64,000 bases of DNA from an uncultured Gammaproteobacteria bacterium. GTDB lineage: Bacteria; Pseudomonadota; Gammaproteobacteria; Chromatiales; Chromatiaceae. The stretch's first letter is position 1; each line of letters begins with the position of its first letter. The stretch lies in assembly GCA_963753615.1 (NCBI GenBank), contig CAVWCW010000029.1:1418-65417 (forward strand), written 5' to 3'. The translations under genes were made by a program, and so were the position numbers. The notes under the pieces were generated by a model. It was not told where the DNA came from and ran no database searches. It was given only the letters and a program-made list of their open reading frames with translations. Positions 55,847 to 64,000 of the stretch are shown here, in pieces.

Positions 55847-58800
55847 ATGAACATCGGCGAATATTCGGTCAAGACCCCGGTCGTATCCTGGCTGCTGATC
55901 ATCATTATGGTGGGCGGCGGCATTTGGGGCTTCGAGCAGATGGGCAAGCTGGAGGACCCGGCCTTCACCATCAAGCTGGCCAAGATCATCACTTACTATC
56001 CCGGCGCCAGCGCCCAGGAGGTGCAGGACGAGATCACCTACCACATCGAAGACGCCATCCAGCGCATGGAGCAGGTGTGGAATATCAAGATGTCGGTTTC
56101 GCGCCCGGGTGTGTCCGACATCCTGATCGAGTTCAAGAGCAAGTACCGGGCCAAGGATTTCCCGGCCATTTTCGACGAACTGCGGCGCAAGATCGCCGAC
56201 ATGAAGGGCAAGCTGCCGCCGGGGGCCCAAGAGCCCAATATCATCGACGAGTTCGGCGACGTCTACGGCGTGTATTATGCGCTCACCGGCGAGGGCTACA
56301 GCTGGCGCGACCTCTGGGACTTCGCCGACCGCTTCAAGCGCCAGCTGGTGCTGGTTCCCGGGGTGCGCAAGATCACCATCGACGGCGAGCAGAAAGAGAC
56401 GGTGTACGTCGAAATGTCGCGGGCCCGCATGGGCGAGCTGGGCATCTCGGTGGAGACGATCGCCCAGATCCTGCAATCCCAGAACGTGGTCGCCGATGCC
56501 GGCAATGTGCGGGTCGGCGACGAGTACCTGCGCATCGAGCCCACCGGCGAGTTCAGCTCGGTGAAAGCCATCGGCAATGTGCTGATCGGCTCCGACGAAC
56601 GCAGGCTGATCTACCTGAGCGACATCGCCGAGATCGTTCGCGCCTACGACGAAGTACCGACCAAGCTCTATTACGTCAACGGCAAGCGGGCCCTGACCCT
56701 GGGCATCTCCATGCAGGGCGGCGAGAATGTGGTGGCCGTTGGCGAGCGCCTGGCCGCGCGGGCCAAGGAACTCGAGTCCACCATCCCCGCCGGCATGGAA
56801 CTGGTGCAGATCTACAACCAGCCGCTGGAGGTGGATAAATCGGTCAGCGGTTTCCTGGTCAGCGTCGGCCAGGCGGTGGCCATCGTGATCATCGTGCTGC
56901 TGCTGTTCATGGGGCTGCGCATCGGCTTGATCATCGGCGCGGTACTGCTGATCACGGTGGCCGGCACCCTGCTGATCATGAACCTGACCGGCATCGAACT
57001 GCAGCGCATCTCCCTGGGGGCCCTGGTGATCGCCCTGGGCATGCTGGTGGACAACGCCATCGTCGTCGCCGAGGGTATGATGGTGCGCATGCAGGCGGGC
57101 ATGCGCGCCGCCGAGGCGGCCGGCGAGGCCGTGGGCAAGACGATCTGGGCGCTGCTCGGAGGCACGGTGATCGGTATCCTCGCCTTCTCCGCCATCGGCC
57201 TGTCGCCGGACAGCACCGGCGAGTTCGCCAACTCCCTGTTCTGGGTCATCCTCTACTCGCTGCTGCTGTCCTGGGTCACCGGCATCAGCACCACCCCGCT
57301 GCTGTGCGCCCTGCTGCTGAAACCGGGCCAGCCCGGAGAAGGGGAGCCGAAAGACCCCTACGGCGGCCTGATGTTCCGGCTCTACCGCGGTTTCGTCGAC
57401 CTGGCCCTGCGCCTGCGCTGGCTGACCGTCGCGGTGGTGCTGGGGCTGTTCGTCGCCGCCTTGATCGGCTTCGGCAGCGTGCAAGCAGGCCTTCTTCCCG
57501 GAGTCCAATACGCCGCTGTTTTTTGTCGACGTCTGGGAGATCGAGGGCACCGACATCCGCCGCACCCGCGACGACACCCTCAAGGTGAGCGAGTTCCTGC
57601 GCGGCCTGGAGGGGGTGGAGCAGACCACCACCGTGGTCGGCGGCCCCCACCAGCGCTTCACCCTGGTCTACGACTCCAGGGAAGCGGCGGCGGCCTATTC
57701 CCAGATCATCGTCCAGACCGACAGCCGGGAGCGCATCGCCGAGGTGTGGGACAAGGTCGCCGAATTCATGCGCACCGAGCTGCGCGGAGACCGATCCCAT
57801 TATCAAGTCCCTGCGCATCGGCCCCGGCCGCGACAGCAAGATCGAGGCCCGCTTCCACGGCCCCGAGCCGGCCGAGTTACGGCGGTTGTCCGAGCAGGTC
57901 CAGGCCATTATGCGCGCCGACCCGGAGGCCAAGGACATGCGCGACGACTGGCGCCAGCCGGTGAAACTCGTCAAACCGATCTTCAACGAGCAGGTGGGCC
58001 GACAGCTCGGCATCACCCGCGAGAACCTGGCCGCCGCCCTGCAGTACGCCTTCGACGGCACCCGGGTGGGACGCTACCGGGACGCCAACCTGGTGCTGCC
58101 GATCCTGATGCGGGCGCCGGAGGACGAGCGTGGCGACGTCGGCAACCTGCAGGACATCAGCGTCTGGAGCCCGGTGCTGCGACAGGCAGTCCCCGTGGCC
58201 CAGGTGGTGAGCGGCTTCGAAACGGTGTGGGAGAACACGGTGATGCGCAGCCGCAACCGCCAACTCACCATCATCGCATCGTGCAACCCCACCGGCGAGC
58301 TGACCGCGCCCCTGTTCGGGCGCCTGCAGCCGCAGATCGAGGCCATCGCGCTGCCCCCCGGCTACAGTTTCTCCTGGGGCGGCGAGTACGAGGACTCTGC
58401 CCGCGCCCAGGGCGCCCTGTTCGGCGCCCTGCCCGGGGGCTTCCTGCTGATGATCCTCACCAGCATCCTGCTGTTTGCCAAGGTGCGCCAGCCGCTGATC
58501 ATCTGGCTCACGGTGCCGCTGGCCATCGTCGGCATCACCGCCGGCCTGTTGGCCTTCGACGGCGCCTTCGACTTTATGTCGCTGCTCGGCGCCCTGTCCC
58601 TGATCGGCCTGCTGATCAAGAACGCCATCGTGCTGATCGAGGAAATCGACCAGCAGATCGAAGAAGGCAAGGAACCCTACACCGCCATCCTCGACTCGGG
58701 CGTCAGCCGCCTGCGGCCGGTGATCCTGGCCGCCGCTACCACGATCCTGGGATTGATCCCGCTGCTGCAGGACGTGTTCTTCGTCAATATGTCGATCACC

Positions 58801-58899
58801 ATCATGGCCGGGCTGGGGTTTGCCACCGTTCTCACCCTGGTGTTCGTGCCGGTGCTCTACGCGATTCTGTTCCGAATCAAGCGGCCGGCGGCGGGCTGA
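55847..58899 (+). pseudogene. AcrB/HAE1-type RND efflux permease with two frameshifts (near 57478 and near 57790)
   Basis: Three collinear pieces. (1) MNIGEYSVKTPVVSWLLIIIMVGGGIWGF... up to GFGSV. (2) KQAFFPESNTPLFFVDVWEIEGTDIRRTRDDTLKVSEFLRGLEGVEQTT...FMRTEL. (3) DPIIKSLRIGPGRDSKIEARFHGPE...LTLVFVPVLYAILFRIKRPAAG. Confidence 0.9.
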
Positions 58900-59041
58900 A
58901 CGAGGCGGGGATCGTATTCATCGTCGAGCTCGGCGGCTGAGCGATCGGCCGGCGCCGGGACATGCGCTTCGCCCAAGCCCCAACCAAGACGCCCCGCAGA
59001 TCAAAAAAATCTTTGCCATAGCGGCGACAGGGATCCATGCC

Positions 59042-60706
59042 ATGTCAACACCACTGCTGTTGCCGCAGAATGACCCAGACCGGCAAGGGCGCGCCGACGA
59101 CCTCGCCGAGATGCGCGACACCTACGCCTACCGATACGCGTACAACGACAGCATCGCCACCGCGATCGAGGTGCCCCGCAGCGAGTATCCCGACCTGCAC
59201 TACAAGCGGCAATTGTTGAAGAACCTGGCGCCTCTGTTGTTGAGCCTGCCGCGAGTGCTGGGACAAACCCTACGCAGTTGGAGCGGCAAGGCGGTTGGCG
59301 ATCACCACAACTACTTCTTCTTCGCCAACTCGCCCTATCCGGACCGCCGCTTCATCCGCGACTTCCAAAGCGACCGCGAGTTCGGCCTGCAGCGGGTGGT
59401 GGGAATGAATCACTTGATGACCCGCGCCCTGAGCGCCGAGGAAACACTCCCGCCCGGCCTCCCCGCGGCCGAGCTGGAGCCCTTGTTTACGCGCCTGAAA
59501 ACGGGTCAGAGTCTGGCCGAGGCGCTGGCCGCCGGGCGCCTCTTCCTGGCCGATTATCACCCACTGCAGGGCTTGGCCGACGACCCGGGCGAGTTCGACG
59601 GCGCGCGCCAGTACATTACCGCCCCCTTGGCCCTGTTCCACCTTGGAGCCGAGGGCAGCCTGCTGCCGGTTGCGATCCGCCTGCAACAGCAGGCGGCCCC
59701 CGAGGCCCCGCTGTTCGGCCCCCACCAGGGCGAGCATTGGCAGGCCGCCAAGTTGTTCATGCAGGCCGCCGACGGCAACTACCAGGAGATGATCAGCCAC
59801 GCCACCCGCATCCACTACCTCGCCGAGGCATTGGCCCTCGCCAGCCGGCGCAACCTGCACCGCCGTCACCCCCTGATGGCCCTGCTCGATCCGCACCTGA
59901 GCTATACACTGAAGGTCAATTCCGGCCGCCTGTCCCTGGCCGATAAACAGCGCCAGCCCGGCACTTTCGGCAAGCTGTTCGGCGGCTCCTACCAGGCGAT
60001 GATCGACCTCATGGCCGAGTCCATGCGCAGCTTCGACTTCCAGGCCAACGCCCACCCCGTCGACCTGCGTTGCCGCGGCATGGACAATTCGGAGCTGTTC
60101 TACCCCTACCGTGACGACGGGCAGCTGATCTGGAAGGCCCTGCAGGACTTCGTCGAAGAATACCTGTACGGTTATTACGCGGCGGACCAGGACCTGGAAG
60201 CAGACCCGGAACTGCAGGCCTGGGCGGGCGAGATGGGGAGCCGGGATGGCCTTCGGTTAAACGGCTTTCCCACCGCCATCAGCAGTATCGGACAACTGCG
60301 CGATACGCTAACCAACCTGCTGTTTACGCTCACGGCCCGTCACAGCTCCATCCACTTTGCCCAGTATCAGTACGCCGGTTATGTGCCCAACATGCCGCTC
60401 GCCTGTTACCTGCCGCCGCCCACCGACCCGGACCGCCCCCTGGAGCCGGACTACCTTCTCAAAGCGCTGCCACCCTTTAGCCCGGCCCTGCACCAATCGT
60501 TCATCTTTTACCTGACCAACTTTCGGGTCAACCGCATCGGCGATTACCGAATGGATGCCTATGACACCTCTGGCCAGGCCGCCATCCTGCGCTTTCGCGA
60601 CAAGCTACGGGAGGTGGGCGCGCGCATTGACGCCGGCGATCGCAAGCGCCTCTGTTCTTACCGGCACCTGCACCCGGACTGGATTCCCAACGGAGCAACG
60701 ATCTGA
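59042..60706 (+). CDS. Lipoxygenase (short, PLAT-less bacterial type, 554 aa)
   Basis: WQAAKLFMQAADGNYQEMISHATRIHYLAEALALASRRNLHRRHPLMALLDPHLSYTLKVN has the HxxxxH iron ligands (H253, H258). ARHSSIHFAQYQYAGYVPNMP has the HxxxH/N ligands (H434, H438). The C-terminus IPNGATI ends in the terminal Ile ligand. No signal peptide is seen. Confidence 0.85.
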   Translation: MSTPLLLPQNDPDRQGRADDLAEMRDTYAYRYAYNDSIATAIEVPRSEYPDLHYKRQLLKNLAPLLLSLPRVLGQTLRSWSGKAVGDHHNYFFFANSPYPDRRFIRDFQSDREFGLQRVVGMNHLMTRALSAEETLPPGLPAAELEPLFTRLKTGQSLAEALAAGRLFLADYHPLQGLADDPGEFDGARQYITAPLALFHLGAEGSLLPVAIRLQQQAAPEAPLFGPHQGEHWQAAKLFMQAADGNYQEMISHATRIHYLAEALALASRRNLHRRHPLMALLDPHLSYTLKVNSGRLSLADKQRQPGTFGKLFGGSYQAMIDLMAESMRSFDFQANAHPVDLRCRGMDNSELFYPYRDDGQLIWKALQDFVEEYLYGYYAADQDLEADPELQAWAGEMGSRDGLRLNGFPTAISSIGQLRDTLTNLLFTLTARHSSIHFAQYQYAGYVPNMPLACYLPPPTDPDRPLEPDYLLKALPPFSPALHQSFIFYLTNFRVNRIGDYRMDAYDTSGQAAILRFRDKLREVGARIDAGDRKRLCSYRHLHPDWIPNGATI

Positions 60707-60825
60707 GGCGATGCGCCCGCGTCGGGAACCCCGGCGCGGCACGCCCCAGACATCCGCAACCGAGCTACGGCCCCCCAACCGCCAATGCGGAACTCGCCGC
60801 CGAGCGAATCGCGCTCGATCCGCGC

Positions 60826-61236
60826 TCAGTTCTTGGCGGCGGCGATTTGCTGCAGGGTCTGGGCTTCGAGATCGATGCCGACCTCCAATCCCGGGTTGAG
60901 CGAAATGCCGAAACCCACCCCAAGACGCTCCAGCACCCAAGTGAATTCTGCCACCAGCCCGCCCTCGTACCCCGGATAATCGCGCACAAAGGCCTTGGCC
61001 CGCTCCGGGCCGGTAAACAATACCAGGATCTCCCCCCCGCTATCCTCGTCCTTCAGGGACAGGGGTTTAGCCTTCTGGGACGTCACAAAGCCGCCGATCT
61101 GGTGCTTTTCGTAGACCGGCATAAACACCTCCGAGGCCATCAGGGTATCGATGAACTGCTGGGGGGTGGCGCGGCCCTCTTGGGCATCGAGCAGAACGCG
61201 CTCGAGGTCGTTGCTGGGCTGGAATTCCTGACTCAT
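60826..61236 (-). CDS. SseB-family protein
   Basis: NDLERVLLDAQEGRATPQQFIDTLMASEVFMPV...ILVLFTGPERAKAF resembles the SseB N-terminal domain pattern. The length is 136 aa. Confidence 0.7.
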   Translation of the reverse strand: MSQEFQPSNDLERVLLDAQEGRATPQQFIDTLMASEVFMPVYEKHQIGGFVTSQKAKPLSLKDEDSGGEILVLFTGPERAKAFVRDYPGYEGGLVAEFTWVLERLGVGFGISLNPGLEVGIDLEAQTLQQIAAAKN

Positions 61237-61719
61237 GGGGGCTCCTGAAATGCTTTGGCAAGCCCACTATATGTAGGCGGCCCAGGCAAAGGCAAGAGAA
61301 GCGCCGATCAAATGCTTTTTCGTTCGGCCTCTGGAAAAAACTGCACGGAACGGCTGCTTTCAACGTTGCCCAAAGCAAGCGGCCAATGTTTGAACGAGTT
61401 CACTCGGCTTCTCGTCCCGTCTTGACCTGAACGGCGCCCTAACCTAAGTTTCAAGGGCGGCGGCCTGCTCCAAGCCGGCGTTTCCGAGGTCCTGGACCGA
61501 GACGCGCCTCTGCGGGGCTACCCCGCGGTAACTTACTCGAAACGGCATCCCGCTGCATGAGCGACGCTGCGCCCCAGCGCAGACCCGCTCATGCGGGACA
61601 AGACTGGTTGGAGCCGGTCGCCGCATTTTCGCTTCCGGGCGGCTAAAAATGGCGGGGCTTCCTGCCCCGCACGAGAAGCGCTGTTAAACAAGGGTTTCAC
61701 CAAGGGGGTCGACAGCCCG
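61237..61719 (+). ncRNA. Candidate structured non-coding RNA region upstream of the reverse transcriptase (possible retron msr-msd); boundaries unknown
   Basis: 483 bp with no credible ORF and several GC-rich hairpins: 61435-61459; 61510-61528 (CTGCGGGG-cta-CCCCGCGG); a composite 61548-61598 (TCCCGC..ATGAGCG..CTGCGC-ccca-GCGCAG..CGCTCAT-GCGGGA); and 61652-61670 (GCGGGGC-ttcct-GCCCCGC). A 9-bp inverted repeat GCTTCTCGT (61407-61415) / ACGAGAAGC (61671-61679) brackets them. Confidence 0.3.
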
Positions 61720-63108
61720 ATGCAGCAGCGCCAACGGGTCGCCTTGGCCTTGGCCGACGCCTTTCTCTGCGGTGCTCCCAAGCCATCCGAGCTGATCGAG
61801 CGCGGCAGCGCCGCCCTGGGCGATCGCGTGCCCTGGCTGGCCCCCCTGGCGACCCGCACAGGATCGGCGTTCGGTGCACAATGGCCGCCGGAATCCGCCG
61901 CGCTGGGGCGGTTCATACTAGCCGACCCGGCCTTCCGCCAGAGTTGGCGCGAGCCTGGCCCAAAGCCGCGTATCCGCCGTTGGTTTCTGCCCGCCTCGAC
62001 GATGGGCGAGCCGGTGCCCCCTCTGGCGGCCTGCGCCCTGCCCTCACTGGCCAGCCCGGGCGAACTGGCGGCATGGCTGGGGCTGAGCTGCAGCGAACTG
62101 GACTGGCTGGCCGATCCCTGGGGCAGCGAGCGGCACTCCGCGGTCGGGGCCCTGCGCCATTACGTTTACCGCTGGATTTCCAAACGCCGCGGCGGCCAGC
62201 GCCTGCTGGAGGCGCCCAAGCCCCGCCTGCGCTCCGTGCAGCGGCAGATTCTGCGAGGCATTCTGGACCCGGTGCCGCCGCACCCCGCAGCCCACGGCTT
62301 TCGCCGCGGCCGCTCCTGTCTCAGCCATGCGCAATCCCACTGCGGCCGGGTCCTGGTGCTGCGCATGGATCTGAGCAACTTCTTCACCCAGGTGCCGGCA
62401 CGCCGGGTGCATGCCCTGTTCGCCTCCCTCGGCTACCCCCCCGCGGTAGCCCGCTGCCTGACCGGGTTGTGTACCAATCGCACCCCGGCCCGGGTGCTGG
62501 GTGGTCGGCTCGGGGAGCGGCCCGAGCTCGACTGGCAACAACGCCAGGCCTTGCAGCATCCGCACCTTCCTCAGGGGGCCCCAAGCTCGCCGGCCCTGGC
62601 CAACCTGGCACTATTCCGTTTCGATCTGCGCCTGGCCCGCGCCGCTGCTGCCCTGGGCGCCCGCTATACCCGCTACGCCGACGATTTGGCCTTCTCTGGG
62701 GGCGCGGTCTTCGCCCGACGCGTTGGGGCCTTTCACGGGCTGATCTGCCGCGTCGGCCTGGAAGAAGGGTTTCCGGTGGAAACCCGCAAGACCCGGGCCA
62801 TGCGCCAAGGGGGGCGCCAGCAGCTGACCGGCATCCTGGTCAACCGCCACCCCAACCTGCGACGGCGCGACTATGACCGCCTCAAGGCTATCCTGCACAA
62901 TTGCCTCAAGCTCGGGCCAGCGGGACAGAACCGGGAAGGCCACCCGGATTTTCGAGCCCACCTGCAGGGCAGGATCGCCCATCTGGAGCTGTTGAACCCG
63001 CCCCGGGGACAGAAGCTGCGGGCCCTGTTCGAGCGCATTGAGTGGGGGGAGTCCGTTATCCACGCCACGGGCGAGCGCGGTCCAATCTGCTCCCCGGGTG
63101 CCCGCTGA
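61720..63108 (+). CDS. Retron-type reverse transcriptase with a ~140-aa N-terminal extension
   Basis: RT motifs present: AHGFRRGRSCLSHAQSH, VLRMDLSNFF, LPQGAPSSPALANL, YTRYADDLAFS (YADD at 62674-62685), QQLTGILVN and RRRDYDRLKAILHN. The ATG at 61720 has AAGGGGG 11 nt upstream. The frame is open back to 61591. An alternative internal ATG at 62002 would give a canonical ~368-aa retron RT. Confidence 0.9.
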   Translation: MQQRQRVALALADAFLCGAPKPSELIERGSAALGDRVPWLAPLATRTGSAFGAQWPPESAALGRFILADPAFRQSWREPGPKPRIRRWFLPASTMGEPVPPLAACALPSLASPGELAAWLGLSCSELDWLADPWGSERHSAVGALRHYVYRWISKRRGGQRLLEAPKPRLRSVQRQILRGILDPVPPHPAAHGFRRGRSCLSHAQSHCGRVLVLRMDLSNFFTQVPARRVHALFASLGYPPAVARCLTGLCTNRTPARVLGGRLGERPELDWQQRQALQHPHLPQGAPSSPALANLALFRFDLRLARAAAALGARYTRYADDLAFSGGAVFARRVGAFHGLICRVGLEEGFPVETRKTRAMRQGGRQQLTGILVNRHPNLRRRDYDRLKAILHNCLKLGPAGQNREGHPDFRAHLQGRIAHLELLNPPRGQKLRALFERIEWGESVIHATGERGPICSPGAR

Positions 63109-63925
63109 ATGCAGCCCCGTAGGAGGGTAAGATCGCCCGAGGTCGAAACCCAGATTCGAGGCTGCCGACAGCGGCATCGGTCGAGCCGCGGTTCGGAGCA
63201 ACTGCGGGCTGGCTCGGAACGGGCAACCCCGACAAACCCCCTGCCCAAGACGGAAGGTTGGCGGGCGCCACCAGCCTCAGGTCATGCACCAGGCCGTCGC
63301 GAAAACGAGACACCGAGGTCGGGCGGCGTACCCGAGCAGCACCAGGCACACCCACGCCCCCGATGCCGGCTGCGTATGAGCGGTCCCGAAGTTCGGGGGT
63401 ACTACTACAAAAAAAGATACCGCGGAACTGAGTAAATGCGGATGCGAACTGGAAAATGGCGCCAAGCGCCATTAGACTCATAAGGGTGTTTCGAAAAATA
63501 CAGCGGCCCCTGCCAGGACGCTGGGGTTCGGGGCGATTCAACCGCCCCGTTCCAAAGGTAAGCGAAATCGCACGGGAAATGCCGTTGCCCAGTTGTGACG
63601 CCGCCGAGCGGAATACGTTCTTTGCAGAGAACGGGCGATACAAGTCTTGTTCGCGGTCGGCCAGCGCCATAAACAGGCAAACGACGCCAGGAAGCGGTTG
63701 AAGTTTTGTATCTGCCGGAGAGCGCGAGTTGACCGATCGGGTCTCGAAACGGGAAGTTGTTCTGGGCATAGGCCTGGTGCAAAATCGACGCGGAATTCCG
63801 GTTCAGCTAACGCTAAACGCCAAGTTGGATCAGGTGGCCGGCGATGCGCAAACCCTTACCCAAGATTCTGAATCTCTACTAGCGGATAACTCGAGGTTGG
63901 TCCCATGGTCCATACGTTGAAGGAA

Positions 63926-64000
63926 ATGAAAATCAGCGTTTCGGATTTGACCTTGGGTTGTTTCGTCTCCAGGTTGGACCGCCCTTGGCTGGACACGCCC
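63926..64000 (+). CDS. 5' end of an HD-GYP-type regulator (DUF3391 N-terminal domain), partial
   Basis: MKISVSDLTLGCFVSRLDRPWLDTP matches the typical start of DUF3391/HD-GYP proteins (...G.YV..LDRPWLDTPF). A GAAGGAA RBS lies before the ATG at 63926. The gene runs off the window. Confidence 0.6.
   Translation, partial: MKISVSDLTLGCFVSRLDRPWLDTP

Follow-up and report, generated by a model that had tools for sequence, protein, structure and literature searches.

A probable two-component retron without a linked effector gene in a contig of an uncultured member of the Chromatiaceae

A reverse transcriptase (RT) gene located at positions 61720–63108 of a 64,000-nucleotide (nt) stretch of DNA was characterized computationally, together with its flanking DNA and its homologous loci. 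The stretch, called here the window, comprises positions 1,418 to 65,417 of contig CAVWCW010000029.1 (assembly GCA_963753615.1), from an uncultured gammaproteobacterium of the family Chromatiaceae. The locus is probably a two-component, effector-less retron, consisting of a promoter, an msr-msd RNA (61457–61624) and the RT (61720–63108), and nothing else.

The RT gene encodes a genuine retron-type RT, by sequence and by predicted fold. All RT motifs quoted for this open reading frame (ORF) of 462 amino acids (aa) in an earlier note, made from the sequence alone, were present. The features of the gene are the following, all on the plus strand.

61702–61708 (+): possible ribosome-binding site, AAGGGGG, read from the sequence.
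61720–63108 (+): retron RT ORF, 462 aa.
61720–61950 (+): N-terminal five-helix domain, residues 1–77.
62476–62565 (+): 30-aa insertion, N253–H282, directly before the QGAPSSP motif and conserved family-wide.
62674–62685 (+): YADD catalytic motif, residues Y319, A320, D321 and D322, invariant in the family alignment.

The longest ORF in this frame starts at 61591 (505 aa), and the RT is annotated in this form in a public record (P0001). Position 61720 was preferred as the start because the homologues begin at or near the MQQRQRVA methionine in every sequence of the alignment (n = 27), and because the 61591 start, for which no homologue gives support, falls within the msd/a2 part of the retron RNA.

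The best PADLOC model was RT_other (503 bits, E 3.7e-151, near end-to-end), followed by RT_outgroup, described as "retron" (467 bits, E 1.3e-140, full model length), RT_XIII (305 bits) and then types III-A, XI, XII, II-A and others; all top PADLOC matches were retron models. The sole Pfam domain was RVT_1 (residues 153–361, E 2e-16), and NCBIfam gave sub-threshold matches to the St85, Ec67 and TIR retron RTs. When the family profile was compared with the PDB, the top matches were all retron RTs, with the Ec86 RT at E 7e-45. The AlphaFold2 (AF2) model of the RT (predicted local distance difference test score, pLDDT, 87; predicted template modelling score, pTM, 0.75) had the Ec86 RT as closest solved structure (target-normalised TM 0.83–0.84, 23–24% identity), and its top 18 structural matches were all retron RTs. 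Both retron-specific regions, X (NAxxH, between RT2 and RT3) and Y (VTG, in RT7), were present: region X as SHAQSH, with H207 invariant, aligned to NNATPH of Ec86, and region Y as QQLTGILVN (LTG, G371), aligned to RKVTGLVIS of Ec86. The identification as a retron-type RT, and not as an RT of a group II intron or a diversity-generating retroelement (DGR), which had been made from the motifs, was correct; nor is the protein an enzyme of a defence-associated reverse transcriptase (DRT) system.

The RT family comprises more than 7,000 database proteins at E<=0.001, the listed homologues having about 435–455 aa with 90–100% query coverage. It occurs mostly in Beta-, Gamma- and Alphaproteobacteria. 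Named hosts were Burkholderia, Paraburkholderia, Janthinobacterium, Nevskia, a gammaproteobacterial metagenome-assembled genome and Micavibrio, many copies coming from soil or peat metagenomes; a scan of species-representative genomes returned two relatives only.

Two regions distinguish this RT from the Ec86 RT. The N-terminal extension was kept in every homologue (96% query coverage). Its length had been put at about 140 residues; the extension is real, but its family-specific part is about 100 residues, because retron RT models from outside the family already align from residue 102–105. In the AF2 model the first 77 residues form a five-helix domain (pLDDT about 90), after which an extended linker runs to about residue 110. 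Conserved residues of the domain are an LADAxLAG motif and the invariant W39 and W76; no Pfam match and no catalytic-looking conserved residues were found in it, and the bundle modelled alone had no fold match at E<=0.001 in PDB or BFVD. Residues 1–117, searched against 1.84 billion representative proteins, gave 109 matches only, and the eight of these that were inspected were all the same RT or N-terminal fragments of it. To judge from these matches, the domain appears to be confined to this RT family; binding of RNA or oligomerisation is as plausible a role for it as that of an effector or sensor. The second region, the insertion of about 30 aa before QGAPSSP, was located exactly as N253–H282, where the Ec86 alignment breaks (profile position 253 to 282, Ec86 155 to 158). 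In the AF2 model it forms two short helices of lowered pLDDT.

A metagenomic homologue of 647 aa (P0148) carried about 215 extra residues ahead of the usual N-terminal domain, including a strongly acidic stretch rich in Glu, Asp and Trp; this may reflect a wrongly called start or a genuine additional extension.

Directly upstream of the RT lies a conserved, covarying RNA with retron architecture. Its components, all on the plus strand, are listed below together with the promoter-like site that precedes them.

61422–61450 (+): promoter-like site, with −35 TTGACC at 61422–61427, a 17-nt spacer and −10 TAAGTT at 61445–61450; it ends about 6 nt before a1.
61457–61624 (+): retron non-coding RNA (ncRNA; msr-msd), a1 through a2, about 170 nt, delimited by covariance model, nhmmer and covariation.
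61457–61473 (+): a1 arm of the closing stem, pairing with 61608–61624.
61474 (+): candidate branching (priming) guanosine, immediately after a1 and unpaired in the minimum free energy (MFE) fold.
61477–61508, about (+): variable msr hairpin 1, from the MFE fold.
61510–61528 (+): near-invariant msr hairpin 2, CUGCGGGG-CUA-CCCCGCGG, the most conserved part of the RNA.
61553–61596 (+): msd stem-loop of 44 nt, predicted template of the msDNA (multicopy single-stranded DNA) hairpin, from inverted repeat I2 and the MFE fold.
61607 (+): opposing guanosine, immediately before a2 and itself preceded by a conserved AGACUcG segment.
61608–61624 (+): a2 arm of the closing stem, pairing with a1.

The upstream intergenic DNA was conserved in related loci (blastn), always directly before the RT and on the same strand. 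The layout of the RNA is that of a textbook msr-msd, as described by Mestre et al. 2020 (PMC7736814, section 16), and its helices were recovered by RNAalifold. An explicit structure of 40 pairs was scored on a MAFFT alignment of 46 diverse RNA copies (A2). Standard pairs occupied 93.1% of cells, against 35–48% when the 3' partners were slid by 1–3 columns; 31 of the 40 pairs showed changes on both sides, and none of 500 column shuffles reached the observed values. In a model-guided alignment of 78 sequences 94.3% of cells were paired; this alignment leans toward the structure, and the independent MAFFT alignment agrees with it. Compensatory changes were seen in 15 of the 17 pairs of the a1/a2 helix (92.8% of cells paired). 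In msr hairpin 2, of eight pairs, 98.9% of cells were paired, and one C-G pair was replaced by U-A in 20 of 46 sequences. Helices 3 and 4 of the msd stem showed compensatory changes in 7/9 and 6/6 pairs, respectively. Hairpin 1 differs in sequence and length between loci, a hairpin being visible in most rows of alignment A2. G61474 and G61607 were G in all 78 aligned sequences, "two opposing G residues" being a feature of retron ncRNAs (PMC7736814, Figure 2 legend). The window RNA alone had an MFE of −98.1 kcal/mol (z = −6.2).

The RNA element was found by iterated nhmmer in 72 of 86 related loci. The covariance model (R1) matched the window once, at full length (61452–61633, 142.9 bits, E 1e-28), and gave matches directly upstream of the RT and on the same strand in 77 of the 86 related loci, in one more weakly with filters off, and in all three further Burkholderia and Paraburkholderia loci. 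In most loci lacking an RNA match the contig does not reach upstream of the RT; locus L023 is the exception. Additionally, a TAnnAT-type box, often TGCTATCAT, ends 6–9 nt before a1 in most of 75 related loci.

Locus L023 (2836–5288) holds a decayed retron copy, in which the RT match begins at residue 61, directly behind an ORF for a DDE transposase of insertion sequence (IS) type, and no msr-msd RNA was detectable, even with filters off.

The spacer between a2 and the RT (61625–61719) has about 95 nt in the window and 20–40 nt in most relatives. It contains a perfect hairpin (61652–61670, GCGGGGC-TTCCT-GCCCCGC) that scores as a minus-strand terminator; the two closest relatives carry a further insertion of about 80 nt in this spacer.

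The RNA and the RT are co-inherited as one unit, and no protein-coding partner is linked to them. Comparison of homologous loci had been proposed in the earlier note, which saw no effector gene at this locus. All ORFs of >=100 aa within 3.5 kb of the RT were clustered for 87 loci, 56 of which had >=1.5 kb of upstream and 55 >=1.5 kb of downstream DNA. No ORF family occurred in more than 4 of the 87 loci, the few that recurred being duplicate records or generic transporters, and among the small ORFs of 30–130 aa beside the RT no conserved family was found, only translations of the RNA region. The absence of an effector gene regularly beside the RT is therefore true of the whole family and not only of the window locus. 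The flanking genes of representative loci are as follows.

Window and two 87%-identical relatives: lipoxygenase and SseB / HD-GYP.
Locus encoding P0005 (metagenome contig): DUF2459 / cupin.
B. cenocepacia: DUF389 / IS and H-NS.
B. ubonensis: glyoxalase / DUF3141.
B. stagnalis: aconitase / hypothetical.
Paraburkholderia: AraC / HNH fragment and VgrG.

When B. cenocepacia was compared with B. ubonensis or B. stagnalis, nucleotide homology extended from about 8 nt before the RNA to 13–23 nt before the end of the RT ORF. Since the flanks of these loci are unrelated, the limits of homology show that the inherited unit is the RNA plus the RT and nothing else. The element is thus promoter, msr-msd and RT, and the family spreads as this minimal unit of about 1.7 kb.

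The immediate neighbours in the window were as the earlier note had described them: a minus-strand SseB-like gene, a lipoxygenase gene and an HD-GYP-type gene, which starts at 63926. The SseB-like gene was rejected as effector; no PADLOC model matched it, and outside the window it was present in the two syntenic relatives (87% identical) alone. Function had also been suggested for the long non-coding DNA on both sides of the RT. For the upstream side this was correct, since it encodes the msr-msd RNA, which had not been recognised at that time, while the 817 nt downstream of the RT lie outside the element: 63109–63431 is unconserved even in close relatives, and 63432–63925 (about 500 nt, apparently non-coding) is 81% identical to the two syntenic relatives, occurs only beside the HD-GYP gene, and may serve that gene as a long leader or a regulatory region. 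Ten genes at 35–56 kb of the window, among them those for topoisomerase IV subunit A, a P-type ATPase, histidine kinases, a radical SAM enzyme and an efflux membrane-fusion protein, were housekeeping genes with no PADLOC matches, so the RT is not in a defence island.

By analogy with characterised retrons such as Ec86, a single transcript would start at about 61456. As in Ec86-like retrons, this RNA would fold with a1/a2 closed, the RT would bind the msr hairpins, and the 2'-OH of G61474, the putative primer, would prime complementary DNA (cDNA) synthesis. The template would be copied leftwards from about 61606 through the msd stem-loop, with a stop before the msr. The predicted product, on the same analogy, would be a branched msDNA of about 55–75 nt with its 5' end set by the conserved AGACUcG segment. 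The best guess for the output is that the RT-msDNA particle would act with a non-adjacent partner or via the N-terminal helical domain of the RT, and not through a toxin encoded in cis.

Several observations weigh against the interpretation as a two-component retron. A literature search found no experiment on any member of the family. The lack of a linked effector clashes with the current tripartite model of retron defence. The promoter is weak: its −10 box matches 3 of 6 positions, and since the match is too weak for the consensus scan, which did not call the site, the argument for it comes from positional conservation. RNAalifold gave no consensus structure for the variable msr hairpin. No Rfam model detected the RNA, a search of 60500–64000 at E<=10 giving chance matches only. 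Finally, the window ends 892 nt past the RT stop, and the downstream context was taken from the 87%-identical relatives.

With respect to the output of the element, an unlinked partner or host factor was ranked first, activity of the N-terminal domain second, and a decayed or non-retron element, both very unlikely, last. The first alternative supposes a tripartite retron in which the gene for the effector, or for a host factor needed by the retron, lies at another site of the genome, and in which this unlinked protein is restrained by the msDNA-RT complex until phage infection. An effector is used by all characterised retron defence systems (PMC7736814), a HEAT/ARM protein co-evolves, as a separate component, with the related RTs of type XIII (PMC7736814, section 19), and nothing is linked in about 90 loci although purifying selection on both RT and RNA is clear. 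On the other hand, the cassette lies in unrelated contexts even between Burkholderia species and looks self-sufficient, as if moving alone; a partner in trans would need to pre-exist in every recipient, and no candidate was identified. This alternative is considered unlikely, although it is the best placed of those weighed here.

Slightly less likely is a single-protein retron, in which the RT would itself act as effector or sensor and its N-terminal helical domain, perhaps together with the inserted 30 aa, would stand in for the separate effector. The known fused effectors are C-terminal, recognisable enzymes, whereas here there is a helical bundle of 77 residues with neither a fold nor a Pfam match and no catalytic-looking conserved residues, which could just as well serve RNA binding or oligomerisation. 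The domain is nevertheless conserved in all homologues, confidently folded and confined to this family, and effector domains are fused to the RT in retron types I-C, VII-A1, XI and XII (PMC7736814, Table 1). The suggestion that the N-terminal extension is an effector gained no positive support. A related, more general proposal is also doubtful, with about the same standing as the unlinked partner: that the effector-less retrons of this lineage are self-contained, the N-terminal domain and the insertion giving the RT-msDNA particle a direct activity. Such an activity could lie in sensing and in arresting growth with no need for a separate toxin, or in nucleic-acid metabolism unrelated to defence, and self-contained retrons, if real, would break the tripartite rule.

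It is very improbable that the locus is a decayed retron, for example of type XIII like Mx162 and Mx65, whose effector genes were lost locally. RT_XIII was the third-best model and type XIII RTs are also enlarged, but RT_other and RT_outgroup exceed it by 160–200 bits, the absence of a partner is family-wide, the ORF is intact with its catalytic residues all conserved, and the RNA shows compensatory evolution; true decay looks otherwise, as in L023, truncated by an IS element and with its RNA lost. The least probable alternative, to which almost no weight was given, is a non-retron RT of a group II intron, a DGR or a UG/Abi/DRT system (unknown group, abortive infection and defence-associated RTs): the matches to group_II_RT_mat (TIGR04416, 47.7 bits, two short stretches only) and Drt2 (34.9 bits) cover the common RT4-5 core and are far under the curated cut-offs of 300 and 390, respectively, the structural matches are to retron RTs, and the architecture of the upstream RNA is that of a retron, not of an intron or a DGR template repeat.

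The two-component retron of the window is, in consequence, probably a member of a large and already catalogued effector-less lineage and not a new kind of system. The novelty was overstated in the earlier note, which had offered an uncharacterised RT-based system among its explanations: the PADLOC retron models match end to end, and stand-alone cassettes have already been described (PMC7736814; Toro 2026). What is added to knowledge is one member of the lineage with an explicit RNA model. Retrons are currently seen as three-part, toxin-antitoxin-like phage sensors and are also used as genome-editing tools; effector-less lineages are catalogued yet unexplained, a question that becomes testable through an explicit RNA model. 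With its predicted priming G, template and promoter, the defined RNA is a convenient test case for the role of effector-less retrons, and its short msd makes it a compact candidate for RT-DNA production.

Other features of the surrounding DNA were also recorded. The lipoxygenase gene (58820–60706; Pfam Lipoxygenase, E 1.5e-45) adjoins an efflux pump and is kept in the syntenic loci L003 and L004; enzymes of this kind are uncommon among bacteria. A GC-rich hairpin (60702–60750, minus strand) is situated between the lipoxygenase gene and the SseB-like gene, which are convergent; it has a weak, chance-level Rfam match (MAT2A_D, E 0.048) and is probably a bidirectional terminator. The efflux pump gene, of the resistance-nodulation-division family (ACR_tran, 55847–58899), appears to be split over three frames (55847–57964, 57585–58940 and 57886–58899), each of which gives a plausible protein running into Arg/Pro-rich nonsense; this implies at least two frameshifts at about 57.4–57.9 kb, from a pseudogene or an assembly error.

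Compared with known systems, Retron-Eco1 (Ec86, type II-A3) is the best solved structural relative and shares the NAxxH and VTG regions, YADD, and an a1/a2 stem with opposing Gs. The Ec86 RT has 320 aa and lacks the N-terminal domain and the 30-aa insertion, both present in the window RT, and Ec86 has an adjacent effector resembling a nucleoside deoxyribosyltransferase, whereas the window retron has no effector gene.

The nearest typed model is that of type XIII (Mx162, Mx65, Sa163, Ne144; RT clade 10), which aligned to residues 102–441 in one stretch. Enlarged RTs with the msr-msd upstream are common to both. The link to Mx162 and Mx65 drawn in the earlier note is a relationship only, not membership of the same type. 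The window RT scored 305 bits with RT_XIII against 503 bits with RT_other, the type XIII model leaves its first ~100 residues unaligned, and the winged-helix/SWIM and HEAT/ARM partners of type XIII were present neither in the window nor in about 90 related loci. The msDNA of Mx162 has 162 nt, against a msd stem-loop of 44 nt in the window. Type XIII tends to vertical inheritance, while the window-type cassette occurs in differing contexts even within Burkholderia.

Stand-alone (msr-msd)-RT cassettes are known from RT clade 11 and from a branch of clade 2 (Mestre et al. 2020, PMC7736814, section 18). The clade 2 branch, the Ec107-like retrons, is the other known effector-less lineage; it belongs to another RT clade, its PADLOC model (RT_Ec107-like) gave only 173 bits on the window RT, and its members have no N-terminal extension and are found mainly in Bacillota and enterobacteria (Toro 2026, bioRxiv 10.64898/2026.05.14.725207). 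The best PADLOC models of the window RT are untyped (RT_other and RT_outgroup), PDLC03740 (RT_outgroup) following directly after PDLC03739 (RT_Ec107-like), which gives an indirect pointer to clade 11. Ec107 makes msDNA.

The third component of the tripartite scheme was found neither as a recurrent neighbour in the 87 loci nor, by Pfam, as a domain in the protein other than RVT_1, and in this the window retron resembles the stand-alone retrons of clade 11. More than one ncRNA consensus is known in clade 11 (PMC7736814, section 16), and the clade was split by ncRNA model into A and B, clade11-A being enriched in Pseudomonadota, with Actinomycetota and Acidobacteriota also present and no consistent accessory module (Toro 2026, bioRxiv 10.64898/2026.05.14.725207). 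Clade 11 was essentially actinobacterial according to Mestre et al. 2020 (PMC7736814), whereas the family of the window RT is mostly proteobacterial (Beta-, Gamma- and Alphaproteobacteria). Shared with these retrons are the two-part cassette with no recurrent accessory gene, an RT with regions X and Y, a canonical ncRNA (a1/a2, short msr hairpins and a long msd stem), and hosts that include Pseudomonadota and soil bacteria. We infer that the retron of the window, which fits this description, belongs with the stand-alone retrons of clade 11.

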